Shown here piece by piece: positions 16,380 through 64,000 of a DNA stretch of 64,000 nucleotides. The notes under the pieces are model-generated. The model searched no databases. It was not told the origin of the DNA and saw only the letters and a program-made list of their open reading frames with translations. This stretch comes from Chiloscyllium plagiosum (Eukaryota). The translations under genes were made by a program, and so were the position numbers. The number at the start of each line of letters is the position of its first letter. Positions within the stretch are counted from its first letter, which is position 1. The stretch covers positions 536,399-600,398 of the forward strand of contig NC_057755.1 of assembly GCF_004010195.1 (NCBI RefSeq). Reading direction: 5' to 3'.

Positions 16380-17210
16380 ACTACTGATCAAACAATCTAT
16401 GTGTCTGCCCGGAGAGTAATGGAAGATCTTAACATCTAACTGGGTCAGTAGGGAAGGTTCAGATGTCACGTTTAAACATGGCAGCTCCAAGCCTGATTCA
16501 TTTTAAAGCTGCTTAATACTGACTTTAAATAATTGGGCAGAGGCAATTGACAGACGAGAAGGGAGCATAATTTTTAAGGTGAAAGATAAGCGATTTTGAG
16601 GGGTTTGGAGGGAAAGGTTTTCAACCAGAGAGAGGAGGATCTCATAATTCAGTGCTTCGGACTTTACCTGGATGATGAACACTTGAAGTGTCATAACGTT
16701 CACTATTTTGAGTGTGGCGCTGAAGTCTGGAACAAGTGTTGGTTTAGTGCAGTCTTGAAACACAATTTCAATATACTGAAGGGACTTTTGGTAGGGTTCT
16801 ATGGTTCCAAGAATTACTGCTGGGGTCAGGTTGGAAACTGAAACATTGTGATCAGATTAATCAAAGAGCTGTCGTTGCTGGAAACATGAAACAGAAATAG
16901 AATTAATTGGCGAAACTCAACAGGTGCGGCACCATCTCTGGAAAGAGAAACAGTGTTACCAGAATCACTCTTAACCTGGACTTCTTCATCTGAACATGAA
17001 TTACTGGACTCAAAACGTCATCACAGCTTTCCTGCTGCACAAGACGCTATCCTTGCAAACAAAGGAGAGGTGTTCATTCCGAAAAGGAAATTGAGGTTCA
17101 AAGTGTTGATATTCATCGACTATGGAACATTTGTTCGACTGCACTCAGTATACAGGAGGTTGTTCTCGGCGTTATGTTCCAAAACGATGAATTGTTGCAC
17201 TTGAGAAGAT
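16380..17210 (-). pseudogene. Orphan intron of a probable fourth GPR139-like paralog
   Basis: Colinear similarity to 50770-51640 (intron of paralog 2); shared motif AAAGTGTTGATATTCATC also present in the intron of the intact gene near 30358. Confidence 0.6.
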
Positions 17211-18839
17211 GCAATTATTCAATTGAAAATGCGAACAGAGTTGACAACGTTCTGTTTCATCATTTTAGGCACCAAATACCATCTAAGTCCTCACTGTGAT
17301 GATAAAGTGAGGACCTGTGAAATAAGTGTATCCTCATGACTTGTTTTTGGAAAGACAACAATTCCTTTTAATGTTTAGCAAATATTCTAACTTTTTATGT
17401 CCATTGATTCAGCAAGGAATGCAAATTTCAAATCTTGAAATGTGAACTTTCTTTTGCATTTTCTGCGTTGTCTGACTTAAATAGTTTTCGAATGTGCTTG
17501 TTGATATTTTATGAATAAAGTACATAATACAGAACAAACAAACAGTCCACGTTTGCAATAACTGAGTGTGGTTGCTCCAATCTGTGTATAATAAAATATA
17601 ATATCACAAAAACCCGAACTCCGTGATTCCCTCTTACGTTCTGATCATGTCAGGCATACATTCAATTTAAGCTGATAATCCGAATACCCAGCAGTTCATG
17701 GACAGAACGTGAGTTCACAAAATTGACTTACAAGCACTTTATTGAAGAATGACAATAACTAAACAAGGCACGCATTGTTAACCTAATGACCAAATTGACA
17801 AATTCGTCTGTTGTAACCTCAGTTAAAATTATTCCTTCCTACGAAGAATGACTTCATGCATTGTAAAAATTACAAAGCTGCAGTCATTTCTTCAAGGAGC
17901 AACCACAGACTCTGAAATTCGCATATACATTCCACAGTGTTCCAACCATTCTTTCGGACTGGTGGAAATGTACAGCAGAGAAACAGGCCATTCAGCCCAA
18001 TGAAGGAATTTACGTTAACATCCCGCAATTCTTCTATGATCCCAAACAACTGCAGGATTGTTCTGCCATTCAAAGAGGTCATTCATGTCTGCATCGACTG
18101 AATGAGTTATCTACCTGTTGTAATCCCACTTTCCAGCAGATTGTCCCTTGAAGACAACACCATTTGAGGTGCAGATCCAGGTTTCCTTTAAATCAGTTGA
18201 ACTATTCCAGCTGAAACATCCCCTCCCCCGAAGCTGAGAAGTGAATTCCAGACATATGATCACCCTACAGATGAAAGGGCTCGTCATCATGTCCCCTATA
18301 ACCTTTCCCTCTTGTCCCATGGGAAAGGATCCTCCATTCGGAATGATATGGCTCCATTCAAATCCCAGAGTGTTCGGACACCTCGATCAATTACCTCTCT
18401 TTCTCCTCTGTTCCGGTGAAAATGACCTTAACCTATCCAACCTTCCACGATGATGCTGTAATGTCCACATATTAGCAACATTCTTGTAAATCTCTCTTAT
18501 TCTCTCCTCACTACAATTCTGTCCTCAAAGTTAGGTGGTGATCAAAACTGAGCATCAAATCGGAACTGTGAGAATCTAATGTCGCATGTACTTCCCGTGT
18601 TCTCGGTCTGCCAGGGGGAGAGGGAATTTGTTTTGGGTTGGATCTTTTGCAGGCTGACGGGGTAGTAAATTGGGGTGGGGTAATATGGTATTATACCTCA
18701 GTATGGTTGTCCGGTCAGGGTCTATGATATATAATGGAACTGGAGGGAAGCAGTTGGGGCATAGTCTGATCGAAGTATGGGGTTAGTTAATCAGTTCCTC
18801 ACAAGTTAGACAATGTATTTAACACCCTCACCTCACCTC

Positions 18840-20950
18840 TGTTGTGCTACCAGCTGACGCAATCACGGATCAAGCGAAACCCCTGGTGGAAATCGAGCTT
18901 GATAGATTAAAACCTTATTTCCTTTGATTTCACGAAGTGACCTCTTCCTGAATTGTCCAAACCCCAAACTGCAAATAATGTTTAGGCAAAATAACAGGAG
19001 TTCATTATAAAAAAAAAGTTGATTAAACAGAGTAAATCAAGCTACTCACTTAACAGAGTAAATCAAGCTACTCAGTTAACATGGCCTGTTTAACCTCTTC
19101 ATAAATCAAGTACTAATCTCAAAGAAATGCATACATGAAAAGAAAACAAAAAGTTTTTTTTTAATTTATTGGACAAAACAGTGCTCCCGGTGTCCATATG
19201 ATACTCATACCAGAATCTCCGCATCTAATGTTTGATAAAGTGGCTTGTGACTTCCATGATTAACCTGGAACTCCATTAAACTTCTTCTTGGAGCTAAGAG
19301 ACAGCTCAGTGCCAATATACTCAGTTTTAAATCAAGTCTTCAGACCCTTGTTTAAAACTCAACAATACTGGTCTGCAGTGAACACAAACTTTCCATTCCA
19401 CGATAAGGTGATTGATTAAATCTCTCATTCCCTTCTCAAGAGCACAGATTTACACACCCAAAAAGTTCCAGGATCTTAGCAGGACTGAAGGAAATAACAA
19501 ATTTGATTAAAATGAAACTGAATTACTTTGTCTTTTGGGCGTACGACAAAGTACATAATCTACAAAACCCCGAAAATTCCTTAATTCTCGCTTAGTTCGA
19601 TGAAGTGGTATTCCCACTGTTCCTTCAATCCTTTCAGGACTAATTATCCTTTTTCCCTCACTGACCAATTGTCCTAACTGTTTCATTTACATTTCTACAT
19701 AGTGTAACTTATTCCTTGAGACCCTCTTCATTATTTTCTGGAGCAAACGTCGTCACGATGAGACGTAAACCACTTTCTAACTTCAATCCCAAACATTCCC
19801 GGGGACTCGAACCCCTGTTAAACGATGGGGACTCTAACCCCAAATATACCCAGGGGACTCTAACACCTATTAAACCATGGGGACTTGAACCTCAAATATA
19901 CCAGGGGACTCTAACCCCAATTCCTCGTCGGAAAGAAATTGACCAAGTCTCTTCCTAATAAGTTGCTCCCTATGCTCGGAATATCTAACAATTGTCCTTC
20001 AACTTTTCCTTCATTTTTTTTCGATCGTCACTCCGCCTTTCCATCGTCTGGGGCTTCTTTATTTACCTGTGGTAAACTCTTATCAGTGCTCTCTACTCTT
20101 GGTTTCGTAGTGTAGGATTTCCAATTCGCCCAACTTCTATCCCTCAAAGGACGAAGTTCTGGCCAGGAGCTTGTCTTCTGCACCAACAGGTATCATCTGC
20201 TAATTCCGCTGCATTCTCACTTCCTGAACTTTCTGTTCCTTTACGTGAATTCTTACCATCTCTGCAAGTGAGTTTTTATAACTCCCTCATCAGAATAATC
20301 TTTCAGGCATGCACCAATCGTTCAAATGACTCTTTAATTCCTTCGAACTCAACATAAATCTGCCCTGGCTCCTCCTTTATGTTTCTGAACTACTGTCTAT
20401 ATGCTTCCGGTACCAATTTATAAACAGTTAACATGGCCTGTTTAACCTCTTCATAATCTCTTGACCCCTCATCTGACAGTGCAGCAAATACCTCGCTAGC
20501 TGTGCCGATCAGTTTAGTCTGAATTAGTATTACCCATAAATCCTCGAACTACTCTATCTCCCGAGCTAAGTTTTCAAATGAAACAAAGAAGGCTTCAACA
20601 TCTTTCTCATTAAAACGTGGCAGAGTTTTGACATATTTATATATATATATTGCTACCTTCTCTTTTAACATCCATTCTGTTGACTTTACTGATTAAGTCG
20701 CAACTTGTCAAGTTCAAATTCACTTTATTTTTGCACAGCTAAGAACCTTATCTCTTTTTCCCCTCTCACTCTTTTCTACATGCTGTCACGGTCTACTCCT
20801 GTTGTTAGTCACGGGTTCTATCCTTTTCTTGACTACTTCGTCATCCGTGGCTACCGTCATTTTTGCCTTCTATTTCTGCTTCTAATCCGTCTCCTTACAA
20901 TCACATTCTGTGCCCCACTTATCAATCCATTCGGTGAGTTCTCACCTCAC
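18840..20950 (-). mobile_element. Gmr1-type LTR element remnant (gag plus LTR-like end)
   Basis: Minus-strand LPRFNEKDVEAFFVSFENL...YRQ is homologous to the gag at 10900-11250; LTR-like end at ~18840. Confidence 0.7.
19800..19920 (-). repeat. Five ~26-bp tandem units each carrying GGTT(C/A)GAGTCCCC
   Basis: Repeated GGGGACTC(G/T)AACCC on the plus strand with alternating spacers. Confidence 0.85.
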
Positions 20951-20989
20951 CCATCTATTTTCTGAATTACCACTCCCCCCCCCCCCCAA

Positions 20990-26617: not shown

Positions 26618-26628
26618 GCACACACACA

Positions 26629-27459: not shown

Positions 27460-27805
27460 AATGAGAGAAAGAGACAAAGGGAGAGACAGAGAAAGACAAT
27501 GGGAGAGAGGATACAGAGAGAAAGGGAGAAAGAATTAGACAGAGAGACAAAGAGTGAGAGAGACAGAGAGAGTGAGAGCGATAGAGAGAAACTGAGAGAA
27601 ACTGAGACAGAAATACAGAGAGAGCGAAAAGAGAGAAAGGTGAAGCGAGATAGAAAGACGGTCAGAGTGACAGAAGAAGAGACTGATTGCGAGAAACTGA
27701 TCGATAGTGAGAGAGACAGTTAGAGAGAGTGAAAGAGAGGGTGAGACAGAGATAGAGAGAAGGAGAAGAGTGAGACAATGGTAGACAGAAAGAGACAGAG
27801 TGAAG
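27460..27805. repeat. GA-rich low-complexity tract
   Basis: Read directly; paralogous tract at 41120-41360. Confidence 0.9.
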
Positions 27806-28629
27806 GGGAAATAATATCCCAGTGTTGAGAGTGGATTGGAGCTGGGCTGAAGAAACTCTTTCAAAAATGAACAGAACAGCAGAAAATAATTTCAAATTTA
27901 GTTGGAGGAATGACCAGCACAAGGAGCCTGTCTCTTGTTGTAATAAAGTGTTTATTCTGAGTTAAACAGAGAGAGTCTGATTATCATCATGGTGTAGTTG
28001 GGACATCCTCCCCTGCAGGGGAATGCAGAGACCCATCCTGCTGGTCTTTAACACTCAACCACAGAGAAGTCCGTGAAAACCCAATGTTCCAGCTGAACCC
28101 ATCACTCACAGCCAGTCCGGTCATTTCCAATCACTTTTGCAGCCTCTTTCCACCCTACCCTGCGCCTGACAGTCACCTCTTGCCTCTTTATTTGATGTCC
28201 CTTCGTCATGTCCTTCAATAATATCAATGCAGAAATTGATAGATTATTGTTAATCTTCGGAGCGGGAGGAGTGGGATCGTCCTCGGGGCAGATGTGAAAG
28301 CGGATTTGACGTTAGAATTAGATGAGATGCGATGTTCTGGAATGGCAGGAGGATCAGAATCGAAGGCGGAATGGCCTAATGCTTGCTGATCATTGTCTGT
28401 GTGTCACAGTATGTGACAGTGTGTAAGGCAGCAGCTTGTTCCTGAGCATAGTGAAAGGTGACCCGTCCTGTTACGCACCCCTTCCCCATTCACTGCTGGG
28501 TGTTATTGTCAGATCCATGTAGCTGTGCTGATGGAGTCCTGGCTGTACATATACAATTCCTGCACAGGGAACACTGTGGCTGCCTCTGGACCTCTCTCAG
28601 TTGTTTTTCTGAATCATTAAGTGAAGAAT

Positions 28630-29486
28630 TTATATGACCAGTTGGTGCACTGCGTTCCTGAACTTCGCTCTGAACTTGGACAGAGTCACTGCATAAAATA
28701 ATGTGTTTGTGCTGCAGCTGAAATCCTTGATGAGGTATCCGATTGGCGCAAAAACAGTTAAAGTTGTTCCATTAATGAAGTTATATAAGAAACTTGTTAC
28801 GTACACTACCCACAGAAGTATGAAGCTGGTGGATATGGTGAAGAGGGTAATCATTGACTTCCTCCGGCTCTCCATCTCTGCATCTTTGTGACATTCTCCC
28901 GTACTTGGACCCTTGAGTGCCTTCCGGACTCGACTAACCACGACGATTTGCCTGACCGTCAAAGTGTTCATCAACAGAATTAACACCAGTGGAATGAAAG
29001 GTGTTAAAACGTTGTCAAACCAGTTAAATCCCAGCCACCTGGGATCAGTAAAAAAACTTGACTTTACTCGGCAGCCCCACGGAACATTGTCAACTATCCA
29101 CCCAGGTTGAAACAAAAAATAGAAGGGAATGTTTTTTGAACAGAGCAGAATGCCAATTGTAGCAAAAGACACAGACAAGGTTTTGTCTGTCCAATATTTT
29201 CTCTTCAGTTTCTGACAGCAAATGACAACAAAACGATCAAAGGAGAAAAGGACAGTGAACCAGACAGAACAGTCTGTGGTTATATGAATCAGAACAAAGA
29301 TAGAACTACACACAGGGGTGAGGTCCAGGAAACTCCTTGGGAAATAAAACTTATTGAGTTGCCACAGTATGACGTTCACGAGAATGAACAGTAAATCTGC
29401 CGTTGCCATGGCCACTAGGCATCGCTTTGTGCAGTTTGAGAGGCCACACTTTCCACGTGCGAGAACCAAAATCACCAGGAAGTTAA
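28630..29486 (-). CDS. GPR139/GPR142-like class A GPCR, coding exon 2 (end of TM1 to C-terminus)
   Basis: Open frame after the acceptor TCTTTCAG; motifs LVAMATADLL, PVC, DCSVWFTVLFSFDRF, ECL2 Cys, TPFIP, EMESRRKS, STNTLFY..SKFR; TAA at 28632-28630. Confidence 0.92.
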
Positions 29487-30981
29487 CTGAAAGAGACGGG
29501 GGTAAAATGCAAATCGGGGATTATTGATAAAACTTTCTCCACGTCTATCCAGAAAGCAATGGATGGTATTAGCACCTAAATGCATTAGGTGGGAATTGTC
29601 TGTGGTCAAATATAAAAATATCAGCTCTGAGCCTGACTCATTTCAAAAATGTTTACTTCTAAGTTTACTTGGGGAATTCAGGGGCGGTGTAGTGAATTGG
29701 CGAATGACACGGGCGCATACATTTGCGGTGACTAGCTTAAGTTTTGGAGGGTATTTGAGGTTAAGGCTTACACTGGAGAACAGTGAAATGCACTGCTTTG
29801 GAGGGCAGTTAAAGGAGAACGCGTAAAAATATGATTAAGTCCTTAGGTGAGCATTCAGGATAACTGGTCAGGACATCTTTTCCTGAAAAAGGATCGCTGG
29901 GTTCAAAATGTTAAGAATGCTTTCTTCTCGCACATGCAAACAGACTAGCCAACTTTCATCAGCAGTTTTAGTTTTTCTTTGAATTGAATCATTAAGGCCG
30001 TAAGTCTTTATCTTACTCTGCTTTTTCAGTTCAGCTCTGACTTTCCAGGGTTTAAGAATTTGGAGAACGTGAGGTCCATTCAGCCTTTCGAACCTGCACT
30101 GCTATTTGACATTTTGGTTGCAGATTCCCATTTAAATGAAAATAATGTCTAGAGTGTCAAACACGCATTGCTGCACTTAGGTAGGAAGGGTGATTTTCAA
30201 AAAATTCCTTTGAAAACAAGCGTCCAAATGCGATCAATGTGTTTGGAAGCTCAGAGGGAAAGATTCACAAAAATGCAAAATAGCCTTTAGAGGGCTATAA
30301 AACAATGCCAGAGCCAATTTAGGGTGGGCGTTCGTTTCCAGAAGGGAATTCGAATGCAAAGTGTTAATATTCATCTACAATGGAACCTTTGATGGAGCAT
30401 GCTTCATTTACCAGGTCGGGTTCTGGCAAACATATCACAACAACATGAGTTGATGCATTGGACATACGATGGAGAATGATAACTGAACTGGTAAAAATCT
30501 GTTTCATCATTGAGGGCAAATGCCACTATCTAAACTCTCTCTGTTAACATAATGATTATCTTCAGAGACACAGAGAAGCACACCGGTTAATTACTCAAAA
30601 ACAAAAACGAAATTCACCCTAAATGCTTTAGCACTTACTGCATACGATTTCCACAGTTTACATCACACAATCCAAAGTGACTATTCTACTTAATTATATT
30701 GTAATTCTACTTAATTCTACTTAATATGAAGCATCTGATTAAAATGAAGATTTACTGTAGGTTCCAGGAAGAGATTAATTATCCAGCGGGAAATTCATTT
30801 GTCAAGCAATTCCTGCTGAGTCTGCAATGCTGGGAGCCTGCGGTCTGAATCGAAATCAACTATTGTCTGCCCCTGTGTGACGGTGTTCACAACATGTCCA
30901 TGTATCATTGTGAACGGGAGAGTGAAACCGCAGAGTATCCTCATGCAGATTTACACGAAGTCAACGATGCACAGCACTCAC

Positions 30982-31048
30982 CAGGAACTGCTACAATTGG
31001 AAGGATCACGTAACATATTTTCCGTGCCTGATAAACTGTTTGATACAT
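30982..31048 (-). CDS. GPR139-like GPCR coding exon 1 (MYQTVYQARKICYVILPIVAVP)
   Basis: ATG at 31048; 67 nt ending CCT G|GTGAGT; the phase-1 join gives VAVP-V-NFLVIL, completing TM1; total 307 aa. Confidence 0.85.
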
Positions 31049-31759
31049 TGTTTGCGCGAATCCCTGTGTGCAGGCAATCTGTCTGTACTAAAAGCTGTGG
31101 AAAAATATTCCCAAAGCCTTTCATTTATGCCTGATGGTATCACCTGGGGAACAGACACGTTACTACACCCATCAATTGTATTATTTAAGAATTTGAGTAA
31201 ACAAGTGATGACAGTGAATTAACCCTAAGTTGTGACAGAAGATAACTGAGGGTTAATGAATGATGCAAATCTCAATCGGTCAATCTCAAATATTGGAAAT
31301 TGCAAATATGATACACAAAACCGAGCCGTTCCACTCTGAAATATCCTTTGATTTCAATGTCGTCCTTCCCTTCAATTGGACAATTTCGTAATGATATTCC
31401 GGTTGTTAAGTGTCTCTCTGAGAACTGTTCTCCTCAGCCCTGGGATGTGGCTGCCCTGTTAAACAGCGGCTGTTCCATAAAGAGATGACAGTTGTGAATG
31501 GAGATGATGTGTTCGAGGTGTCAACAAGTCCAACATCGCAATGCACAGCAGTGTATCAATCCAGTATAACTTCATAAATTAAAACAAAATTTTAAACAAG
31601 TCAAATAATTCTTGGGATTTGTTCCTCTAAGGTCACATAAGCTTCAAACGATAAAGATTCTCCTGCAAGTTTAAACTGTTCTGGAGATTTTTCAGATGTG
31701 ACCCTGAGAAACACACAAGCTGCACTGCAGTCGAGGGATATTAATATTTCTCAGTCCAG

Positions 31760-42384: not shown

Positions 42385-42886
42385 TGTGCGAGATAAGCGG
42401 CTGTCCGACCTCATCTCCGGCACTTTTATTTCCCTTCCCAGGAACAAAGACACGGAGGAGTCTGTCCAAAACTTTTCATTCAACTTTGCAAAGTCGGGTG
42501 TTGTTCCCGTGGTTACACACACAAGCATAGTAATCTCCACGCATTATATACACGTATATGTGGGCTGGGTCTCCTACTGCTGTCTTGACCAATGAGTGCT
42601 AGGGTTCCCCACTGTTTTCCTTATTTGGGTTCTGGAGCCTGCGATTATTTTGTTATTCACTTGTCCAATCAGTGTTCGAGCTCCCCGTTCTTTCCTTATA
42701 TGGATGATGTTGTACAACTGTGGTAAAGGGCGGTCTCTCAACTATCGAGGAAAGCTGTTACAATTGTTTCATTCATAAAAACATGGGGGAGGTCCGGCAA
42801 CAGTTTCGAGTGTCTGCTTGTGTTTCCTATAAGGTAGAAAAGACTAAAATGCAGCTAACCGTTTAAAAATTACACTACCCCCTACA
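42385..42886 (-). repeat. ERV 3' LTR (502 bp)
   Basis: TGT...ACA; minus-strand CCAAT-like, TATA and AATAAA motifs; matches 49729-50082. Confidence 0.95.
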
Positions 42887-42920
42887 AATCCCCCGTGTCT
42901 TTTCTTACGGCCTGTAATTT

Positions 42921-44805
42921 TTAAACCGTAAGTTTCTTCTCCAGGGCATTTAATAACTCCCGAGCTTGTTCATCAAACTGTCCGTCTCTAATACTACCCC
43001 CGCCCAAGAGGGATTCACGTTGTTCCATCTCGAGATTCATTCGTTCAACCTGCCTATAGGGAACATCCCTCTTAGTCAGGGCGGTTTCGATCAGTCGTTG
43101 AGTTAATCCCCGGACGCAGGGAATAACGCAACAACCAAGGGCAGTGAGTACCCCTGCCACCACTATACATGAGACAAGAAAGGAAACGACCACCCCCGTC
43201 CATTTACCGAACCAAGCTTCCAACCAGTCCGTGAGGCCAGAGTCGATGCCCGAGTTTTCGGCCAGTTCGTCCGCCAATGTGGTCAGTCCATCCAGGGCGC
43301 GGGTGATGGACCCATCAGGGGCTGTGTTGTTGGGGATGAAAGTGCATCACTGAGTGCCTATCATGACACAAACACCCCCCTTCTCTGCCAACATCATGTC
43401 TAAGGCCAACCTATTTTCCCACGCCATCCTACTAGTGGCGTCCAGTTGTTCTACTATTCCTTTCACTGCATCTTGGGTATAATTAATGAACCTCTGCTGA
43501 TTGTAGTAAATATAATTAATCCAATCCACGTTCTTATTGATGGTCACCCACCAGAACAGTGACGACTCAAAACCCGCCGCTATCGGGTTCCTAGCCTTGT
43601 ATTCGTCAGGAACACCCCTGGGGACCCCTATGGCATCTAAATATATGTTATCATCGACAGAGGTCTCCAAAGCTCTCTCAGTCCACTGGAACGGGGTTGC
43701 TCTTGTTTTTCGAATGCCAGGGTGAATGGGATGGCCAATTGAACGATTGCAAAAGTGCCCGTCCATTTTCGGGGCAGGGTCGGTCGCAGAACCCTCCCAC
43801 CACAGTACCACCAGAGGTCTGCCCTAGGCACATGAATGTGGGAGTAATTCCCGCCCCCGGTAGTTTCATTGACCAGCCGAATTGATCCGCTGCACTTGTC
43901 AAATGTCCCCACATCGTTGTCCCACTGTAGTCCCGTCCGAGAGACGCAGGCCTGGTGCGTACCCGTTACCCCTGAGAATGATGGCGGGCAGGTCGCCACC
44001 TCAGACCTGACGGGGGGAAACTTCAAACTCAAGGGTCGACAAGTGGAGTCGTTCCAGGCCTCTCGGTCCTGGTACAGCCTTATCATGCAGTCCAAGGCTC
44101 GTGGGTGTTTCTCCCATCCCAGCGGGAATGGGACCACCTGAGGGTTAGGGCGGGCACCCGTGCATGCGTAGCAATCACGCTTTTTCATGCTCCTCACAGT
44201 ATATTTGACCCATTCCATCCAGGCATTCGGCTCCCCGTGTCCCGTTTCTATTTCAAAGGTCTTTTCCAAATCCGTCACCTCAATTATTCTAATCTTTTCC
44301 TGCTCATCGGTGGCGGATGAGCCCCCAGACTCAACTTCAATGATCGTGATACGCGTGCAGCACAGCTGCAACCCCTCCTGTTCTGCCTGGCCCCCAACCC
44401 TAATACCCAGGATTGTTCCATTAAGGCTCGTCCCGTTGTTTCCCAAGTTCTTTATGGTCAGATAGAGCGGATTGCCCACAATCCCGTCCAGGGGTGATGG
44501 GATCACGGACAACTGACATCATAGCCTGGACCCCGGGGGCTGGAGGCCTATGTATGCCTTCCCTACCATGCAATTGTAATACTAACGTCTGACCCTGGAA
44601 TCCCCTTTCTCTCTCTAGGTTCCGCTTAGTTTGATTCAGTTCTCTTTTAGTCCCACAGGGCACCAACCCACATAAGTCTAAGCTAAAAGTCAGAACCACT
44701 GATGTCCTCTGCTTGTTTTTTTCAGAGGCCAAATTGGGTAACATGCGCACTATGACCCAGCCCAAGGATAATGGCATAGCAAGTTAACAATACGATTGAC
44801 CGCAT
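42921..44805 (-). pseudogene. env: ERV env (frameshifted, one nonsense codon)
   Basis: Signal-like MRSIVLLTCYAIILGLGHS, CYAC, DAIGVPRGVPDEYKARNPIAAGFES, ISD WENRLALDMMLAEKGGVC, CX6CC broken by TGA, transmembrane anchor. Confidence 0.92.
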
Positions 44806-44873
44806 TTTGTTGCGACACCTGTAGCCAGAGGGCACAGTTCCTTTAGACTCGCCAAAGTCCGATTAGTTTGTTC

Positions 44874-47800
44874 TCAGGGTCTCTGTTCCTTCGATGCCTT
44901 TGTCAGAGAGGTTCGTTCGTCCTCCGTCGGTTGTGGCACTGGTCCCTTGACTCGAGTGTAATGTGTCCAGCCCTTTTCGGCCGTACGGACAGCCGTTTCG
45001 GAAGTCAAAAGTACCAGGAAGGGACCGTCCCAAGTTGGTTCGAGGGTCCGTTGCTTCCAGCTTTTCATCAGGACCCACTGGCCCGGCTTGACGGTGTGCA
45101 CCGCAAACTCGAGGGGCGGCGTCTCTGCCAAAAGTCCCTGTTGGCGTAAACGAGATAGATCAGACCCCAGAGCCACCACATATTTTTGCACAAACATGCC
45201 CCGAGACTCGAATCAGGAGGTTCCCCCTTCGGCCCATGGAACGGGAGGCCAAACAGCATTTCGAAAGGGGAGACGCCCAAATCCCGCCTTGGCTGGGTGC
45301 GAATTTGCAATAGGGCAAGGGGTAGGCATTTGGTCCAAGGCAGGCCGATTTCACTAGTGAGTTTGTTTAGCTGCTTTTTGATGGTCTGGTTCATTCTTTC
45401 GACCTTGCCCGAGGAGGGGGGATGCCAGGGGGTGTGCAAATCCCAGTCAATCCCCATTGCTTGCACTACATTCTGGAGGACGGTCGAGGTGAAGTGGCTC
45501 CCCTGGTCAGAGTCAATAGCGCGGGGTAGCCCAAATCGTGGGATGATTTGTTCGAGTAGAATTTTGCTAACCTGAGTTGCCGTTGCCGTGGCAGTGGGGA
45601 AAGCTTCCACCCAGCCTGTCAGGTGATCTACTATTACTAATAGATACTTCAGGCGACCTATGGGGGGGAGCTCAGTGTAATCTACCTGGACATACTCAAA
45701 CGGCCTATAGGCTGGACTCCTACCCCCTTGTCTTGAATGCTGCCGCAGCCCCCTTTTGTTAATCTTTCGACATGTTATGCAATCTCCTGTGACCTGCTTG
45801 GCTACCGTGTACAGACCAGGGTGAGCATATCGGCGCAGGAAGGTATCACACAGTGCCTGGGCGCCCCAGTGACCCCCTTGGTGTAGACGGGCAATAACGT
45901 CCCGCGTCAACGGTCGATTTAATAGCTGGCGGCCATCGGGTAAGGTCCACTTCCCTTCCTTATCCTTTGTACCCCCCAGAGACGCAAGAAGAGTTTCTTC
46001 TTTGTCAGTAAACGTGGACACTTCGGTAATTTCGGATATCTGGGGAATCCTTACCAGGCCGTTTATTACTTCCTTCCCCATCCCGGCCAATTTTGCCTGT
46101 TCATCTGCCAATTGATTCCCCAGGGTCTCTATTTTATCGTCTTTCTGGTGCCCTTTCACATGTACTACAGCAATCTCTTGTGGCAGCAACAAATCCTCCA
46201 AGATCATGGCTACTAGTTCCTCGTGGACCAATTCCTTTCCTCTACTATTTATCATTCCCCTTTCCTTCCAGATCATCCCAAAGGTGTGTACTACCCCAAA
46301 GGCATACTTAGAGTCAGTGTAGATTGTCCCGGCTATTCCCTTTAAATTCCTCAGAGCCCGGTGCAAGGCGTACAATTCGCACGTTTGTGCGGACCAGGCA
46401 TTCGGTAGCCGTCCACTTTCCACTAATTCCCAACCAGTCTCACTAATGACTGCATAAAGGTTGTGTCTTTTCCCATCTATCACTCGAGAGGACCCGTCAA
46501 TGCACCACCGCCTTCCTGCATGTAAGGGGGTATCCCTCAGATCTTCCCTCACTTTACTCTGGTACTCTATTATGTCTGAACAGCAGTGTTCCAGTTCCTC
46601 CTCCCCTTCCCCTTGCCAAAGAAAGTCCGCAGGGTTCTGGCAGCCCCCGACTTCTATTCGGAGGTCTTCTCGGTCTAACAATATGGCTTCATATTTCAGA
46701 ATTCTCGAGTCAGTCAGCCACCTCCCGGCCTTCTGATTCAGGATAGTTCTAACCTGGTGGGGAGTAGTGACTGTTAAGGAGGCCCCGAAAGTCAACTTGC
46801 TGCTTTCCTCTACCAGCTTTGCCGTGGCTGCCACCGCTTGGACACACTTCGGCCACCCTCGGGAGACTGGATCCAGAATCTTTGACAGGAAAGCCACGGG
46901 CTTCCTTTTCCCCCCCCCAATCCTGGGTCAATACTCCAAGAGCGGTTCCCTTCCTGGAGTTCAGAAAGAGAGGAAATGTCTTACTAAAATCCGGCAAGCT
47001 TAAAACAGGTGCGGTCATCAATTTTTCTTTTAGGATTCCAATTAACTTTTTCTCCTCCTCCAACCCATTTTATTCTGTTGGGTGCCTCCTCAATGCGTTT
47101 TAGGTACAAGTCTTTAGTAAGGGGGGCATAGTCGTCTATCCATAACCGACAATAGCCTAAGAGTCCCAAGAACTTCCGCAACTCCCTCTTGGTCGTTGGG
47201 AGGCCTAGTTCGATTATTGCCCGCACTCTTTCCGGACTTATTCGTTTCTGTCCCTGGCTTATCAAGTGTCCCAGGTACTTAACCTCTTTCTCGACATATT
47301 GGAGCTTCTTCTGACTCACTCTTAACCCCTTCTCAGCTAGGTAATTTAACAGGGCATTAGTCCCAAGTAGGACGTCCTCCTCCGCGGGTCCGGTTAAAAG
47401 GAGATCGTCCACGTATTGTATAAGCTTAAGGGCCGGAGACAAGGTTAGTCCCTCCAATAATTGTTCCAGAATCTGCCCGAGCAGAGTCGGGGACTCAGTG
47501 AATCCTTGGGGGAGCACGGTCCACCTGTACTGCTGTTTTCTGCCAGTATCAGGATCCTCCTATTCAAAAGCAAAAAGATCCCTACTGTCCTTGTCCAGGG
47601 GGCACGCCCAGAAGGCATCCTTTAAGTCTATAACACTAAACCAACCGTGGTTCGGGGGTATTCGCCCCAGAATAGTGTATGGGTTCGGTACCACAGGGTG
47701 CCGTACTTGGACAATTTTATTTATTTCCCTTAGGTCTTGGACCATTCGGTAGCTCCCGTCCGACTTCCGGACCGGCAGGATGGGGGAATTGTATCGTGAC

Positions 47801-48377
47801 ATACAGGGCTCTACCAAACCATCTTTTATTAGGTCTTCCATAACTGTCTTCAGGCCCTGCCTCCCTTCCCAAGAGATGGGGTATTGGCGCACTCTGACGT
47901 CGGGGCTCTGGGGCCTTAATTTTACCTCCACAGGTCGTTTTGCGAGTCCCTCCCGGTTCCCTTTGGCGACCCAAACCCTAGGGTCTATCTCTGTCAATCG
48001 GGACTCACTAAGGTATGACATGGTAACAGCTAATTCTTCCTCTCCTCCCACTTCTATTCGTAATCCGAAACGGACTATCAAATCCCGTCCCAACAACCCA
48101 TAGGGAAGATGGGGGAGGTGAAGGAGTTCCACCTGGAGCTCCTCCTCCTCCAGCCGCAAGGGTTGTGGTTCGAATATTTTCGCACTAAAACCCCACCCTT
48201 AACTCCTGAAATGTTTAATGTTTTAGCTTGGAAGCAAACCCCCCTAGGATGGAGGGGAATTGAGGACCTGCCGGCGCCTGTGTCAACTAAGAAGATAACA
48301 TCTTGTCTAAATGGGCCCACCCGTAAATTTACCAGGGGTTCTTGGTAGGCCCGTGTTCTGATCCTCCCCTGACTTCC
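44874..48377 (-). pseudogene. pol: ERV pro-pol (protease, RT, RNase H, integrase), disrupted
   Basis: FLVDTGA; LPQGF, YVDD; IDGSS, YTDSKY; HHCC, QVDY, DSDQGSHF, SGKVERMN, GPF; at least 4 frameshifts and a TAG at 47560. Confidence 0.96.
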
Positions 48378-49303
48378 CTAATCCATTTGTTCACGCTCCA
48401 TTTCATTCATCCCTTCTTTTTCCCTTTTAAACTCGGGACAATCCCTTTTGAAGTGTCCCAGTTTCCCGCAATGGTAACATCCGACCACCTGAGGCCGCTC
48501 AATTCCATAAGATCCTCCTCTCTCACTTCTGCCCCGTCTCGCTCCTCTCCCTCTCCAACTGGGGTCGTCCAGTAGACGGGGTAGTTCGTTACGGAGTTGC
48601 CGGATATCCCCAGAATTTAAAGGTTGTACTACGAACCCGGTCCGTTCATTCCCAAACGGCACCTCTTGTAAGGGGTTCAGCTGTTCAATATTGTCACTCC
48701 TCCCAGCTCTCAATCCCTCTTCTCGACCTTTCCGCATAGAACATAGAACATAGAAGAATACAGCGCAGTACAGGCCCTTCTCACTGGTCGTAGCCTGCTG
48801 GGAATCGGATTTATCCGTCGCAGGAGGGAGGTCCGCGCTGGACGCCTGGTCGTGCGCGGGTGGTATATACGGGGGCGGGGCGGACGGTGGCAAACCGTCG
48901 GTGAGAATGTCCCAAGTCTTCTGGGGCTTCCTCGGGTCTGTTTGGGGAATCAGAGGATAGAGACGCGTGGGACTCTCGCCGTCGCCCGCCAACCAGGCGG
49001 CGGCGTATTTGCTCTCTTCTGGGTCAAACGGTTGTTTTCTGTTAACATATACATTTAGGATTTGACACACCCAGTCTTCATCAGACCCATACTCGGGCCA
49101 AACTACCGAGGGGGCGCGGATAGGTTCTTTGGTCCATATAAAACAACAATATTTTATCATGATCTCTTTCTTTAAGTCATTTGTTCTACTACTGTCCGTC
49201 CATAGACTTAACTTCGACCTAATGGACTATCGGGGGGTATTTCTTTCCCATTTGCACTCTTCCCTGACTTCTCCTTAGTAAATCTAGAAGTCTGATTTCC
49301 CAT
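48378..49303 (-). pseudogene. gag: ERV gag (frameshift near start, capsid largely deleted)
   Basis: MGNQTS start at 49303, IPPDSPLGR, PSAPPPY late domains, single CYHCGKLGHFKRDC knuckle, TAG at 48380-78. Confidence 0.92.
48735..48780 (-). mobile_element. 46-bp CR1/SINE 3' tail inside gag
   Basis: GAAGGGCCTGTACTGCGCTGTATTCTTCTATGTTCTATGTTCTATG on the minus strand, like the CR1 ends at ~15810 and ~39880. Confidence 0.85.
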
Positions 49304-49307
49304 GGTC

Positions 49308-49597
49308 TATCTTCGGTCCTGGTCTTAAACGCCTAAAACGTTTTCACAGATGACCGTCAAAACCACAATTTCCCGTGGTTTATCTTCGGTCCTGGTCTTA
49401 AACGCCTAAAACGTTTTCACAGATGACCGTCAAAACCACAATTTCCCGTGGTTTATCTTCGGTCCTGGTCTTAAACGCCTAAAACGTTTTCACAGATGAC
49501 CGTCAAAACCACAATTTCCCGTGGTTTATCTTCGGTCCTGGTCTTAAACGCCTAAAACGTTTTCACAGATGACCGTCAAAACCACAATTTCCCGTGG
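49308..49597. repeat. Four identical 73-bp tandem units in the ERV leader, running into a gap
   Basis: Units start at 49308, 49381, 49454 and 49527. Confidence 0.95.
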
Positions 49598-49728
49598 NNN
49601 NNNNNNNNNNNNNNNNNNNNNNNNNNNNNNNNNNNNNNNNNNNNNNNNNNNNNNNNNNNNNNNNNNNNNNNNNNNNNNNNNNNNNNNNNNNNNNNNNNNN
49701 NNNNNNNNNNNNNNNNNNNNNNNNNNNN
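49598..49728. other. Assembly gap hiding the ERV PBS and the 3' end of the 5' LTR
   Basis: Run of N. Confidence 1.
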
Positions 49729-50082
49729 TAATCTCCACGCATTATATACACGTATATGTGGGCTGGGTCTCCTACTGCTGTCTTGACCAATGAGCTAGGG
49801 TTCCCCACTGTTTTCCTTATTTGGGTTCTGGTGCCTGCGATTATTTTGTTATTCACTTGGCCAATCAGTGTTCGAGCTCCCCGTTCTTTCCTTATATGGA
49901 TGATGTTGTACAACTGTGGTTAAGGGCGGTCTCTCAACTATCGAGGAAAGCTGTTACAATTGTTTCATTCATAAAAACATGGGGGAGGTCCGGCAACAGT
50001 TTCGAGTGTCTGCTTGTGTTTACTATAAGGTAGAAAAGACTAAAATGCAGCTAACCGTTTAAAAATTACACTACCCCCTACA
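49729..50082 (-). repeat. ERV 5' LTR (visible part)
   Basis: Differs from 42531-42886 by 4 substitutions and one 2-bp indel. Confidence 0.95.
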
Positions 50083-50748: not shown

Positions 50749-51644
50749 CTGGTGGAGACAAGAGGTAAAATGCAAATCAAAATCAATAATCAAATGTACT
50801 CCACGTCTGCCCCGACAGCAGTGGAAAATCTTAGCGCCTAACTGGGTCAGCTGGGAGGGTTCAGATATCGGGTTTGAGCAAGACAGCGCCAATGGTCTGA
50901 TCCATTTCGAAGGTGCTCGATCCTGGCTGTGACTAAGTGTGGGCAGGCAATCAACAGATGGCGGGGGGCATAATTTTTAAGGTGAAAGGGAAGAGGTGTA
51001 GAGGGGATCTGAGGAAGTGGTTTAGAGGGGATCTGACGAAGAGGTTATCAGCCAGAGAGTGGTGAGGGTCTGGTAATTCAGTGCCTGGGTGCGTAATGGA
51101 AGCAGGAAATATTACAAACTTTAAAAAAAAAACTACTTGAATGAACACTTGAAGCATCCTGGCATTTACGACTATGAGTACAGTGCTCGAAGCTGGGACG
51201 AGTTGTAGATTTCGTGTGGCTTTGACAACACAAACTGAATGGAACTAAGGACCTCTTCTCTATCGTTGGATTCTATGATTCTAAGAATTACTTTTGGAAG
51301 GCAGGTTGGTAAGCGAAGCATTTTAATGAAATAAATCGAAAGGTTTTGAATGCTGAAAACATGACACAGAATCATTAATAGCTGGCAAAACCCAACAGTT
51401 ATGGCAGCATCTGTGAAGAGAGAAACAGAGTTGATGGAATCACTTTTCATCAGTGCAACTTCATTTGAACATGGATCAATAAACTCAAAACATCATCTCA
51501 GGTTTCTCCTCGCACAAGATCCTATCATTGCAACCAAAAGACAGTCATTCATTTCTAATAGGGAACTGAGATTTACAGTGATGATATTCATCTACCATGA
51601 AACATTTGTTAGCCTGCTCTTCGCATACTGGGCATTGTTAGAGT

Positions 51645-55625: not shown

Positions 55626-55689
55626 TGTGGAATTCCCATCATTGCAGTTTCCACAAGAATTGCCCGGGAAACTGAACTTTCCTCTGGAT

Positions 55690-56440: not shown

Positions 56441-58995
56441 CTGGAATTTTCCATTTCAATCAGAGACTACAAAGAGTTTGAATGGGATTAATTACAGTAG
56501 TCACTTTCGATAAATGGTGATTTCTTGATGTAAAAATTGCGTTAACATTTGTTTCTGGTTTCCCTGCCTGATTAACTGGAAGGTTTCTCTATGTATTTGC
56601 AGCTAATAGGTAACATGCAGGCATTTCTGCAAGCACAGCAATTTCTTTTAAATATCTCTCTTGCAGAATGGCCATGGGTTGAATGTCTGTGTGCTCAAAC
56701 GAACCTGTGTTTCTTTTCGATTGCTTGGAGCTCAGCACGGTATTTATAGAACCTCAAAGGTTTGTTCGTGAATTCTGGGATCTGATCTTAATGATAACAC
56801 CCTTTCTTAAGAAAACTTTCATTTAATTTTTAACTTTGAGTCATTTATTTTAGTCCGTGGAACACCCTGGAGCTGGATGGATGTATATATCAGTACTCAT
56901 GAGAAGGGACTCAGAGAAGCATTCAATTATATTACCTTCGAGTGAAAAGTGTGTGTTCATTCATGACCAGAGTGTTGTGATAAAAGGAAAAAAAATCAGA
57001 AGAGATTACTTAAAGCTACATGCATTGAAGCTCAGCTGTGTTCACTCCCGCAAGAAGCTATCATAGTTATGATTTAAATTGCAAGTTGCAAATCGTTTGA
57101 TCAAGTATTAGACACAGTTATTCTGGTGTGAATATTATACGAGAAGTGATTTTTGGAACTCTACTACAAGTGGGGCTTTGTATGCTTTGTAAAAGTTGTT
57201 TTCTTTCTGTTGAATTTGAAGAATGTTTGGCATTAATTGGGATATATGTTTGCTGTGTGCTTATTCCATTTTATCATAATTTCTTTAGCACCAAACTGCT
57301 GTTTTGTTATTAAAGTAAAATTTGTTGCATTATGTATTTATGATTCACCAAGAGATCACGTTGTTCAAAACTGAAACAAAGAAGATTGTAATCTATTAAG
57401 CTGTATCAATTTTCAGCATTTGGTTTGTTCTGTAATTACATCACCATTTCTCGGATCAGAAGAGAGGCTATTAAACACGGAGTCTGACTTCTGAGCTCCT
57501 GACCTACTGACCCCACAAAGGGTTAGACGTTCCCAACTACAGCCGTTAGGATCCATTATTTGTACCAGAATCTGGCCGGACATCCACAATGGGAATCACT
57601 TCCATATTAACTCTTTCCAAAATTACTGCCCCCTCACTGTTGATGTAATTAAATCTAAAACAAATTCTCTTATTCCCTGTAAAATCTGTGACACTGCGAT
57701 GACATAAAACACTGAGTACCTCTCCGTTGCAGTGTTGTGAACATTGCTCGTCACCGGTTAATACCAGAGACATAATTTTACTGGAAAGAGTACAGAGAAG
57801 ATTTAGAAGAATGTTGTCAGAGCCTGGCAATGACTGAAATATTGGAGGAAGATTGGATAGGATTATGTTGTTTTCCTGAGATCAGAGGAGATTGAAGGTT
57901 GATGTGATCACAGTGCACAAAATAATGAGGGTTTTACGAGAGACCGGTTACCCCGAATGGAGTGGACCACTCACCAAGGGAAATAGAATAAGGCTGATTG
58001 CTGGAAGCATTGTGGAGGACGATGAGGCGAACTCTTTCATCGAGAAGGCGATGGTCTCTCTCGAGTTCACTACCAGTTTAAGGGGGTTTGAGGGGACAAC
58101 CCTCAACACATTGAAAGGGGGATAATATCTGCAACTGAAGTGAAGTCACCTTCAAGACAGTGGACTGGGTGCTGAAAATTGGAATTAGAACAGGTGACTG
58201 GTTTACTCAATTGACTTACAAATGATGGGCTGAATGAGATGTTTCGATGCCTTAAATATCCTATGGTTCTTCACAACAGTGGAAAGTCGGAGGACTGTTA
58301 AATTGAATTCACAAAGTGGACTGAACGCCTGTTCCTGTGCCATAACATTCATATAGTTCCATGAGATAGGAGGACAGCGGACGAGTGCTGAACTGAAATC
58401 CAGAAGGCTGTGGCTTCCTTCCACTTACTCAATGTAGAAGAGATTAAAGCTTCCTAATAATTACAGGAAGGAACGAAAAACATAGAGGATTATAGCTTCC
58501 TTATTCTTTACTGGAAGGAAAAAAATGAACTAACTTTAGAGCATAATACCTTATGAATCATACCATTTGGTTAATACAGTTCACTTTGTTTAATTATTCC
58601 CGTTAGAGAGTCAGAGAGTCCGTAATTTTATTATATTGTAGTTTATTGTACACATTCTAGAGCAGTGGCAATCTATGATTCCACAAGTGCACTGTATGTT
58701 TGATTTTCATTTTTCAATTTATTCATAAAATGTTGACGGGATCATTCCAAAAGTATGTGAGTTAGGCAATGAAGAGAAAACATTTCAAAATCACATTATA
58801 CTCTTTGAGTTTTGCACTCTTTGCTGAGTCAAAATTAGAACACTTGCTAAATATGACTGGGGATTGTTGACATTGCAAGACATGATATCGGCGTCTGAAT
58901 GTGTTACCATGCCCTGCTTATCATGACACAGAGGTCTTAGATAGTGCCTTGTGCCATTGATGATGAAACTAAATTTTCGCAGCTCTATTATCATT

Positions 58996-59068
58996 CTGCA
59001 TCAAACAATGACAACGTCTCCAGCGTACGAACGCATGATTCGTATTATAATGAACAGAAGTACACCCG
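58996..59068 (+). pseudogene. Candidate degenerate exon 1 of GPR139-like paralog 3
   Basis: CTG CAT CAA ACA resembles ATG TAT CAA ACA of the intact gene; ends CCC G|GTATGT in phase 1. Confidence 0.35.
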
Positions 59069-59863
59069 GTATGTTAAGTGAGGTTTTCCGAAGGTTCCAT
59101 AGTAGATTCATATCAACACTTTGTATTTCAATTCCCTTTTAGGTAGTAACACCTGTCCTTTGCAGTAATAGTGTTGTTCGCGAGAAAAATAGACTCAATG
59201 ATGTGAATCTCATGGCTCTTCTTCAGAAGCATTTGTTCTGATGAAGAGGGACTCTAAGCACGAAAGGTTAACTCAGTTTCTCTCTTCCCAGATGCTGGCA
59301 TATTTTTTTAGTTTCACCAGCTATTTCTTTTTGTGTTCCACATTTCCAGCATCCACAGCTCTTTGATGAATTATTACGATGATTAATCTCTAAACGTGAC
59401 CCCCAGACGAAATGTTTAAAATTAAAGAATCCAAAAGCACAGAATAGATACTTCAGTCCCTCAATACTAAAATTAATCAACTCTCGTCCCTACTGGCAGC
59501 ACGAGGTACATAGCTTCGATTGTTATGCGACTTCGAGTGCTCATTCAGGTAGAGGTTAAAGGTTGTGAGGTTGCCCGCTCAACTACCCTCCCAAGCACTG
59601 CATTCCAGATCCCCACTATTACCTGAGTGAAAGCCCTTTCCTTAAATCCATGCAAAATCTCTTGCCCACTCATCATCTGTCAATTCCCTGCCGACAATTA
59701 TTGAAACACAATTAGTGATTTGAGACAGGCATGGGGCTGTCATTTTTAGATTGGACCTCTGACCGGTCCCAACTGATGCATTTAGGTGAGAAGATTTCTG
59801 TTGCTGTCTGGGGCAACGTTTGATTTGTAATTTCTGATTTTTGTCTACCTCTGTCTCTTCCAT

Positions 59864-60693
59864 TTAATGTACTGGTGATTTTCGGTTTTTGTACAGAGAA
59901 TGTGTGCCGTTTCAAACTGCACCATGCGCTGCCTGATGATTATGGCAACGGCAGATCTGCTGTTTATTATTACCAACATTGTACGCAGGAGACTGAATAT
60001 TTATTACTTTCCAATGTGTTTCCTGGACCTCACCCCTGTGTGCAGTCCCTCTTTTTGCCGTGGTTCATATAGTCACAGACTGTTCCACCTGGTTCATTGT
60101 CCTTTTCTCCAATGATCATTTTGTCGCCATTTGTTGCCTGAAACAGTAGAGAAGTTATTGGACACAGAAAGCCTTGGCTGTGGCTCTTCCTATATCTCGA
60201 ATTCTGATCTGTATAAAAAGCATTCGCTTCCATTTTAGGTTTGAGCCAAAGAGGATACTAGACAACGTTCCATGGTATTCCCGATTATTTTACTGATCCC
60301 AGATGGCTGGGATTTAATTGGCTTGATACCATTTTAACCCCTTTCATCCCATTCATGTTAATTCCGTTGATGTACACTCTGATGATCGGGTACATTTTAG
60401 TGGCCAGTCGAATCTGCAAGAGCCTGAGGGGTCAGAGGAAGGGAGAAAATCACAAAGACGCAGAGATGGAGAGCCGGAGGCAGTCATTGATTTCACTCTT
60501 CACGATATCCATCAGCTTCATACTTCTGTTGGTAGTGTACGGTGCAAACATCTTACACTGTATCATTAAAAAGCACATTATTGAAGGAACTGGTGTTTAA
60601 TCCAGGTTAAGGGGGCCAGAGAAATGCTGAAGGACTTCAGCTGCAGCACGAACACTTGATTACATGCAGTGATTCTGCCCAAGTTCAAAGCAT
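59864..60693 (+). pseudogene. GPR139-like paralog 3 exon 2 (inverted orientation)
   Basis: SNCTMRCLMIMATADLL, FLDLTPVC, DAEMESRRQS, DFSCSTNT; acceptor AG mutated to AT; several stops and frameshifts; 3' end cut by a LINE fragment. Confidence 0.9.
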
Positions 60694-62029: not shown

Positions 62030-63435
62030 TAGGGAAGAGGACACAAGATGTCTGTAGGTGTGAGATAGTGGAAGGGTAACAGGACGAGGCTGCACGAGTC
62101 AAGTTTGGTGGAGATGGAGGCATTCATGTTCTAAATTGAAGGAAACTTTCAGAATTCTGAAGAGTAAAGGGATTTGGGTATCATAGCTCAGAATGCTCTT
62201 AAGGTTACCATACAGGTTTTGTTGTCAGTTAGAAAGGCAAATGCAATGTTAGCACTCATTTCAAGAGAGCAAGAATATAAATGCAGGAGTGAATTGCAGA
62301 AACTGTACTCGTCTCTGGTCAGATTGCAATCGGAATGTTGTGAGCAGTTGTGGGCTCCATATCTTAAACCTTTTGTGCTAACATTGTAACAGATCCAGAG
62401 GACATTTATAGGAAACATCCCGGGGATCAGGGGTTTGTGATAAGAGGAGCAGCTGAGGGGTTTGCGTCTGTAGTTGATAAATTTCAAAAGATGAGAGGTG
62501 CATCTGATCAAAATGCACGGAATGCTGTGAGGCCTGTAGACAGTGGGTATGGCAAATCTGTTTACATTTCAATGCAGGATTGGGATGCAAGGGTACTGTC
62601 TCAGAATGAATCATGACTCTTTAGAACAGAGGTGAGAACGATTAACAAAGAACAAAAATGTTACACCACAAGAACAGGAAATTCAGCCCACCAAGCCAGC
62701 GCTGATCTAGATCCCTATCTAAACCAGTCACCTATTATCCAATGATCTGTGTGCCTCTGCACCCTAGCCCATTCATTTGTCTGTCTCGATACATCTTAAA
62801 TAGCGCTGTTTTGCCCGCCTCTACACCTCCACTGGCAATGCGTTCCAGGCACCTACCACCCTCTGCGGAAAGAAATTTCCATTCATATGTTCCTGAAACA
62901 TTTCCACTCTCACCTTGAACTCATGACTCTTGTAATTGAGTTCCCCACTATAGGAAAATCTTCTTGTTGTCCACCCTGTCTACACCTCTCATGATTTTAA
63001 AGACGTGAATCAGACTCCCCCCCCCACCAACAGCCGTCTTTCTAAAGAAAAAGAGTGTTAATCCACTCAACCTCTCTTTATAGCTAGCGTCCTCCATACC
63101 AGGCCATATCCTCTCCAAAGTATCCACATCCTACTGCTAATGTGGTGACCAGAAATGTACACAGCATTCCAAATGATGGATAGCCTTCTTGACTACTTTA
63201 TCGAGCTGTGTTGCCACCTCTGTACATTAATTCTCAGGGACTTTTCCATTTACGTATAGTTCACTCCAGAATTGGATCTTCCAAAATGCATCACCTCGCA
63301 TTTGCTAGATTAAACTTCATCTGCACGTTCTCCACACAACTCTCCAAGCTATATATATATATATTCTGCTACATTCTCTGACAGTCGCATTTACGAACGG
63401 ACTCCACCAATCTTAGTGTCATCTGCAAACTTGCT
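62030..63435. mobile_element. Two old CR1 3' fragments tail to tail (plus 62030-62640, minus 62645-63435)
   Basis: VRKANAMLALISR..LVRLQSEC; minus-strand KFADDTKIGG at ~63405-63432. Confidence 0.75.
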
Positions 63436-64000
63436 AAACAGTCCCTGATGAGGCCTTCAGTCCTCGAGGTCAGTTATTTATATTAGTGAGGAGGAGTTAC
63501 GTCAACCAGAGAGTGTGAAATTATGGATCACATTGCCAGAGATGGCAGTGAGTAGCTAGTGATTCCGTTTATTTAAGTCAGAGATAGGAAATGTTCTGGA
63601 TTAATAAGGGAGTAATCGGTTACAGGGAAAGGACTTGAGAATAGGGTGATGGTCGAATGGTGGTTAAGACTTGAAGGGCCGAATGATCTAATTCTGCTTC
63701 CACATTCTCTGGTTTTCAGGCTGCAAATTTCCAACAGGCAGAAAAAGAATTACAGATAGAGAAAAGAGGGAGGCTGCAAGGATTGGAAGGAGAGATTGTG
63801 AATGAAGGAAGATTGAAGGAGGCAGCAAGGGATGGAGAAAAGGAGAGAAGAATGTGATGGAAACCAGGAAACAGAACCATTGGAAAACAGTGAGGCAATT
63901 AACTCCATGATTTTTTCCGTTTGTAAGGTTGTATTTCTCCCATAGGATCAGCATGGATTTTGGTTGGAGAACGCAAGTCATTCTGATCAGTAATGGAACA

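Follow-up and report, generated by a model that had tools for sequence, protein, structure and literature searches.

Several described receptor systems bear on the locus reported here. The wider group to which GPR139 and GPR142 belong includes the MIP/sex-peptide, proctolin and FMRFamide receptors, according to the relevant passages of PMC12208981 and PMC8514136. In the catshark, GPR139 is a separate gene with 81.3% identity to mouse (ortholog table published in PMC13200729), and relatives in the coelacanth and fishes have been named GPR210A and GPR210B, with sharks not mentioned in the portion of that paper drawn on here (Rinne et al., 2019; PMC6504862). Peptide-type rhodopsin receptors have also given rise to the nematode srw chemoreceptors and to 29 of 90 Aplysia chemoreceptor-like genes (excerpt of PMC3963977). 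In cartilaginous fishes, 20–62 olfactory receptor genes are known per species (mean 43.8), reportedly the smallest repertoire of any vertebrate group (excerpt of PMC10869828), and GPCRs (G-protein-coupled receptors) are few overall (part of PMC8455134). The present study concerns a stretch of 64,000 nucleotides from the bamboo shark Chiloscyllium plagiosum (contig NC_057755.1, positions 536,399 to 600,398), referred to as the window, in which a receptor gene is present in one intact and three broken copies. These belong to a large tandem class A GPCR family of sharks, rays and chimaeras that, judged from sequence comparison, is probably a repertoire of chemical sensors.

Repeats abound in the window, a piece of vertebrate DNA interrupted by three assembly gaps, and a tblastn search with its single long receptor open reading frame (ORF) as query led to four coding places. 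The intact gene lies on the minus strand. Its exon 1 (30982..31048, 67 nt, 22 codons and one base) encodes the N-terminus and the first half of transmembrane helix 1 (TM1), carries an ATG and a GT donor in frame with exon 2, and is the top match (15.6 bits) of the exon-1 profile of the family. A phase-1 GT-AG intron of 1,495 nt (29487..30981, −) is followed by exon 2 (28630..29486, −), which encodes the remaining seven-helix bundle, helix 8 and the stop. The coding sequence of 924 nt in two exons yields 307 aa, with N1.50 at residue 24 and the TM7 motif NTLFY. The exon 2 protein matches Pfam 7tm_1 at E 1.6e-16, and by this match, the seven helices with helix 8, and the residues N1.50, D2.50, D/ERx, P5.50, W6.48 and Y7.53, the product is a class A (rhodopsin-like) GPCR. 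Its closest relative is the Hemiscyllium protein P0002 (93–94%; 93% over 259 residues), in which the reading frame and the stop position are the same.

The protein search with exon 2 returned 1,339 matches among 2,340 candidates, and the best 120 of them all come from sharks or rays, in 10 genera. Separate 90% clusters from the horn shark Heterodontus francisci account for 76 of these 120, and 41 of the 76 are located on one 74-Mb contig. A sequence-only reading of the window had proposed a chondrichthyan receptor family in which genes are born and die; both the number of homologs, which shows the family to be large, and the dead copies beside the intact gene agree with it. The family is not a matter of a few copies, as the 1,339 homologs and the 76 horn shark clusters among the best 120 make plain, nor is there one-to-one orthology to a known receptor. 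The summed read depth of DNA contigs from four runs reached 1,972–9,537 over the TM3 bin vs 0–137 over the intron bins, which is not a copy number; the paralogs swamped those contigs, so that no ortholog could be read for dN/dS (the ratio of nonsynonymous to synonymous divergence) against relatives.

A profile made from 42 members picks up 129 representatives with E values of 1e-30 or lower. Its strong range, as sampled, is chondrichthyan in 10 of 10 cases, including one chimaera, and a sample of its tail (10 of the 150 matches listed) includes a salamander, a coelacanth, two teleosts and two amphioxus proteins. The salamander protein scores 167 bits with this profile, the coelacanth protein 164, invertebrate-type receptors 94–98 and human GPR139 57. 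Two low-copy relatives serve as controls. The amphibian/sturgeon gene (P0229/P0432) is found in 20 amphibian species, with one cluster each, and in sturgeon (25 matches, of which the other four are members of the family). The coelacanth/shark/teleost gene (P0231) represents a second lineage, in which species from sharks to reptiles have roughly one cluster each among the 120 of 145 matches listed. This second lineage (P0231, P0295, P0298, P0302 and relatives) is machine-named 'GPR139-like' and at times annotated as an isoform of TMEM183A; R6.51, D7.36 and Q5.42 are invariant in it, and no mammal or bird appears among the 120 matches listed.

In a maximum-likelihood tree of 40 chosen proteins, 24 of them family rows and with true GPR139 and GPR142 left out, the chondrichthyan family and the amphibian/sturgeon gene are joined at 100/99, and on this tree the latter is the sister of the former. 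The window gene stands within a long-stemmed bamboo-shark branch (100/100), which on sequence is fast-evolved and has a shortened third extracellular loop (ECL3) and C-terminus. Several cysteines of the first and second intracellular loops (GKCGLSxC, ICCQKLKTKYC) hardly vary among family members, and in the bamboo-shark branch the last one is replaced by W.

Evidence for a repertoire comes from the distribution of variation over the receptor. Entropy was calculated for three sets of positions: 28 in the pocket, 168 elsewhere in the helices and 21 on the G-protein face. In the 120 family proteins the mean values (bits, in this order) are 1.76, 0.95 and 0.26, compared with 0.06, 0.51 and 0.24 in the amphibian sister gene (n = 20) and 0.55, 1.04 and 0.56 in the second low-copy lineage (n = 53, the first 53 matches). 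The mean identity of the family (72%) lies between those of the two controls (80% for the amphibian gene, 59% for the second lineage), and the order of the entropies is unchanged with samples of 20 sequences each. For the 76 horn shark paralogs by themselves the values are 1.57, 0.79 and 0.16 (p = 1e-5), and 73 distinct 14-site pockets occur among them. The ratio of outer to inner divergence is likewise 2.22 in the family vs 0.64 and 1.03 in the low-copy lineages, and an outer bias is significant between the window protein and three Chiloscyllium paralogs (p up to 0.002). The likeness to a many-ligand repertoire, first suspected from the window itself, is upheld by a pocket that is the most variable part of the helices, a G-protein face that is near fixed, and a pocket that is conserved in the two low-copy relatives.

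The same data bear on a largely neutral drift of copy number in repeat-rich shark DNA, under which most copies would be redundant or dying. Such drift finds backing in the window, where three of four copies are dead, amid long interspersed nuclear elements (LINEs) and a provirus, and where the dN/dS of the intact gene is 0.67 against copy C and 0.59 against copy D. It was nevertheless weakened already and is very improbable, as the G-protein face is near invariant across paralogs with the pocket above the other helix positions, sharks, rays and a chimaera all have intact members, and the frame and stop of the intact gene are kept in Hemiscyllium P0002. Since the inner face is constant, general decay is unfit as the cause, because decay would not spare it.

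The relation of the family to GPR139 was examined through profiles and structures. Among solved structures GPR139 (PDB 7vug, 9m42) is the top match of the family profile (57 bits, E 1.4e-14, best of 87), the next receptor reaching 40 bits, and in the profile search amphioxus 'GPR139' and srw-scoring invertebrate proteins rank right after the family. By these comparisons the family belongs to the GPR139/142-MIP-FMRFamide receptor group. GPR139 further resembles it in the short N-terminus, W6.48 and a TM7 without NPxxY, but shares only 18% identity with the model of the window protein (structural alignment, 7vug) and holds rank 13 in Foldseek; the single window sequence has no PDB match at E 0.001. 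The GPR139 agonist contacts R244 (6.51), N271 (7.38/39), F109 (3.33) and W241, and H187 (5.43) is required, according to the passages on ligand binding in PMC8807744. In the window protein, Y, Y, H and D stand in place of R244, N271, F109 and H187, and among the 120 family proteins R6.51 occurs in 2, N7.39 in 1, F3.33 in 11 and the H187 equivalent in 5. P6.50 is present in none of the 120 and W6.48 in all of them, and C3.25 is found in 118, where human GPR139 has Asp at the aligned position. An ortholog of GPR139 is therefore excluded by the 18% identity, the lost agonist pocket and the separate catshark gene. The sequence-only reading was right that the gene is not GPR139 itself, to which the profile gives 57 bits vs 167 for the amphibian gene. 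Its proposal of an amino-acid receptor drew on GPR139 and is not supported, as so few members retain the two residues R6.51 and N7.39.

A predicted model of exon 2 (284 residues, without the first half of TM1) has a class A bundle, a two-stranded second extracellular loop (ECL2) and helix 8, with a pLDDT (predicted local distance difference test) of 86.6, and Foldseek finds peptide receptors about equally near. In this model C3.25 and the ECL2 cysteine are predicted to be available for the usual disulfide, and the ligand site is predicted to lie within the helix bundle, given almost no N-terminus and the ECL2 hairpin. Among 31 short family models in which the TM1 motif is clean, 27 have N1.50 at residue 22–24. 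An acidic pocket was considered as a mark of cationic ligands and dropped, one low-copy control being as acidic (−1.55 vs −1.82).

We propose that the family goes back to a low-copy orphan receptor within the GPR139/142-MIP-FMRFamide group, whose pocket ceased to be fixed (loss of P6.50, K/R6.51 and N7.39) and which was amplified by tandem duplication. Every member would recognise outside ligands of its own within the helix bundle, with one G protein or pathway shared by all. The ligands would likely be small molecules or short peptides, not free Trp/Phe. A different source of ligands is conceivable, namely the diversified peptides of the animal itself (reproductive, neuroendocrine or pheromone-like), with receptors co-evolving with multiplied ligands. 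The MIP/sex-peptide, proctolin and FMRFamide receptors of the wider group, together with a fold closest to peptide receptors generally, speak for such a role, yet we consider it improbable, as 73 pockets in 76 paralogs of one species would require an unusually large ligand family. We know of no such expanded peptide ligand family, and none was searched for.

Under the proposed chemosensory role, expression would be sparse and confined to sensory cells. The likeliest of these are microvillous Go/TRPC2 neurons in the nose, with cells of the skin, gill, gut or sensory ganglia as the other candidates. Smell may, as a tentative choice, be the likeliest single site of the repertoire. In the catshark, Go and TRPC2 are found in almost every olfactory neuron (part of PMC10116579) and GPR139 signals mainly via Gq/11 (part of PMC8807744), so that either coupling route is possible for the family. 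Perhaps, although this too is put forward with reserve, cartilaginous fishes possess an independently evolved olfactory family that arose from a GPR139-related peptide-type orphan, which in amphibians and sturgeon remained at low copy number, and that exceeds the known OR, TAAR, V1R and V2R genes together.

In the upstream region of the intact gene (31049..31650, −; 602 bp) TAATGA occurs twice, as does a relaxed O/E-like site. The signal is weak: none of 101 window tiles reaches both counts, but the O/E pattern was relaxed post hoc. Strict O/E sites in the window are at chance (3 found vs 3.19 expected). A perfect O/E palindrome at 18315 was set aside, as it sits in an apparent decayed LINE common to copies A and D. 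No alignment above shuffles indicated a common promoter among the four copies. In RNA or RNA-like runs without tissue label, the interval 27960–31500 was matched by one partial read in 12,955,460 records (X21, about 2% of the run), by none among 8,328,510 records (X22) and by none in X24; X23, which may be DNA, gave four short contig pieces, three of them of 30–42 nt on exon 2.

The weak upstream signal also touches on the choice of cell. A repertoire of the MRGPR or FPR kind, placed in immune or barrier cells and sensing microbial, parasite or damage peptides, would employ the same mechanics in a different cell. MRGPRs are short-N-terminus tandem families, and the same variable-pocket pattern would fit such a role. 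MAS1 and its relatives are missing in sharks, according to the part of PMC8455134 that covers them, and the role would thus be vacant. The TAATGA and O/E-like sites, weak as they are, favour olfactory control instead, and an immune or barrier repertoire is on balance unlikely.

Several observations weigh against a sensory repertoire, or against its olfactory form. The DNA upstream of the intact gene lacks a strict O/E site, and no GPCR is found in the top 50 genes of the brain-plus-olfactory library in the catshark atlas, as given in the portion of PMC11979771 used here; a thinly spread repertoire would likewise give none. The family sample of 120 proteins consists of the best matches to one query, and the pocket position lists follow generic numbering, not model geometry. 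Monophyly of the chondrichthyan family apart from the amphibian gene is weak in the tree (88/70). The window protein differs from P0002 at 17 of 259 sites, 10 outer and 7 inner (p = 0.30), with one pocket site among them, and its outer bias against P0001 has p = 0.09, so that no recent diversification is shown for the window copy. The N-terminus of about 10 residues, which had been taken as a sensory sign, cannot serve as one: low-copy amphibian and coelacanth relatives equal it (1.50 at residue 25–26), and by this comparison the short N-terminus is ancestral.

The other copies in the window had been described as two pseudogenes and an orphan intron which, with the intact gene, form one two-exon GPCR family, and all of these were located by tblastn or blastn. 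They lie in both orientations as described, three copies on the minus strand and one on the plus strand. The duplication of flanks was also recovered, with 71% identity over 1,066 nt between 28728–27703 and 42284–41253; the 3' flank of the intact gene (27703..28629, −) matches that of copy C in blastn, so that roughly 1 kb beyond the gene's 3' end was duplicated together with copy C. The cited intron and flank matches among copies range from E 8e-8 to <1e-140.

Pseudogene C (−) is present in three parts. Its exon 2 extends from the acceptor to TM6 at about 50755–50083 (located by tblastn), with stops and frameshifts, and continues from TM6 to the end, past a provirus, at about 42380–42189 (tblastn E 2e-7; blastn to copy D; 4-bp target duplication). 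Its intron remnant (50756..51639, −) is 67% identical to 16403–17164 and 65% to 59091–59434. Stops occur at codons 145 and 173, and clear frameshifts near 120 and 147. Pseudogene D (+) retains a remnant of exon 2 at about 59870–60692 (tblastn E 4e-41), whose reading frame clearly shifts near codons 29, 84 and 163 and is interrupted by stop codons at 117 and 285, and the acceptor AG is gone; its intron and upstream remnant (56940..59869, +), common with copy A, is 59–69% identical to 19398–16856. Around ECL3, C and D have additional indels that cannot be placed with certainty, since the loop of the intact gene is shorter. In exon 2, C and D are 75–76% identical to the intact gene, with a synonymous divergence (dS) of about 0.41. 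The orphan copy A is an intron and upstream remnant (16382..19398, −) that stops about 35 nt short of the acceptor; over about 19400–16380 it is 59–69% identical to intron or upstream sequence of the intact gene and of C and D, and tblastn of the window found no exon 2 for it.

A profile of 61 family N-termini recognised no exon 1 in A, C or D. The segment 56520–56800 (−) may represent what is left of exon 1 and the promoter of copy C, with 18 of 20 bases equal to the intact exon 1 (E 0.06) and a TATA-like and a TCATTA site upstream, the segment as a whole being not above shuffles. An inverted 268-bp match of 91% joins 34444–34711 and 63733–64000; one arm abuts a gap and the other the window end, and the pair may be a younger duplication or a repeat.

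Pseudogene C is split in TM6 by an endogenous retrovirus (42385..50082, −) of 7.7 kb, which was absent from the sequence-only reading. It has long terminal repeats (LTRs), TG..CA ends, a 4-bp target duplication and the Pfam domains zf-CCHC (gag zinc knuckle), RVT_1, RNase_H and rve (integrase), spread over several broken frames; the two env-like frames that were scanned have no Pfam match. The LTRs are alike at 350 of 356 positions, with 4 base differences and 2 gap columns, and the 3' LTR measures 502 bp. By its LTRs the provirus is young. Copy C was likely dead before the insertion, because its lesions exceed what so short a time would yield. In the proviral leader, beside a gap of 131 bases, a 73-bp unit is repeated about four times at 98–99% identity (49295–49597), either in reality or as an assembly artefact. 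LINE copies, which we take from their ORF text to be of the CR1/L2 type, are located at 52821–53765 (−) and 4265–7218 (−), and the ORF at 52821–53765 (−) contains a GDSL-esterase domain (Pfam Lipase_GDSL_2, E 4e-10).

No description of the expanded family was found in the literature, subscription journals being outside the coverage of the search. A word search found GPR139 unmentioned in the shark genome papers PMC11979771, PMC8455134, PMC7677710 and PMC10620051, and the supplements gave no match in 12 of 24 files of PMC8455134 and none in PMC13188829. Among the best 120 matches, no fewer than 76 distinct annotated members come from the horn shark, compared with the 20–62 olfactory receptor genes known per cartilaginous fish. 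Shark and ray entries named 'probable G-protein coupled receptor 139' in RefSeq and UniRef are this family, and others have been machine-named as opsin, capa or vasopressin receptor-like. The family is thus apparently an undescribed, expanded class A repertoire of separate origin, whose members have so far been machine-named only. New here are the anatomy of the window, the provirus by which copy C can be dated, the finding that the amphibian/sturgeon gene is the sister of the family, and the fact that the GPR139 pocket has been lost. If the members are chemical sensors, the textbook view of shark smell or barrier immunity misses its largest receptor family; if they are olfactory, they would explain how animals with such huge noses get by on the few dozen receptors known so far. 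Through the conserved sister gene of amphibians, the ancestral ligand could be sought in Xenopus or axolotl.

Compared with named systems, the closest non-chondrichthyan relatives are the low-copy GPR139-like orphans of bony vertebrates, presumably of the GPR210A/B type (167 and 164 bits). They share the N-terminal length and C3.25 with the family, but differ from it in having about one cluster per species, a conserved pocket and a basic residue (K or R) at 6.51 in every sequence. The OR, TAAR, V1R, V2R, T2R, MRGPR and FPR families resemble it in their tandem arrays, their pseudogenes and a variable pocket over a constant signalling face. Those families are defined functionally by expression in sensory neurons. 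In Pfam the window protein matches only 7tm_1 at E up to 0.1, with no profile match to any of them. Matches to the srw profile occur in relatives of the chondrichthyan family, but none is found in the window protein and eight of eight other members scanned, and on these profiles the chondrichthyan expansion is independent of srw. The srw and Aplysia receptors, in which a peptide-type class A receptor was likewise multiplied into a sensory repertoire, provide a precedent for its mode of working.

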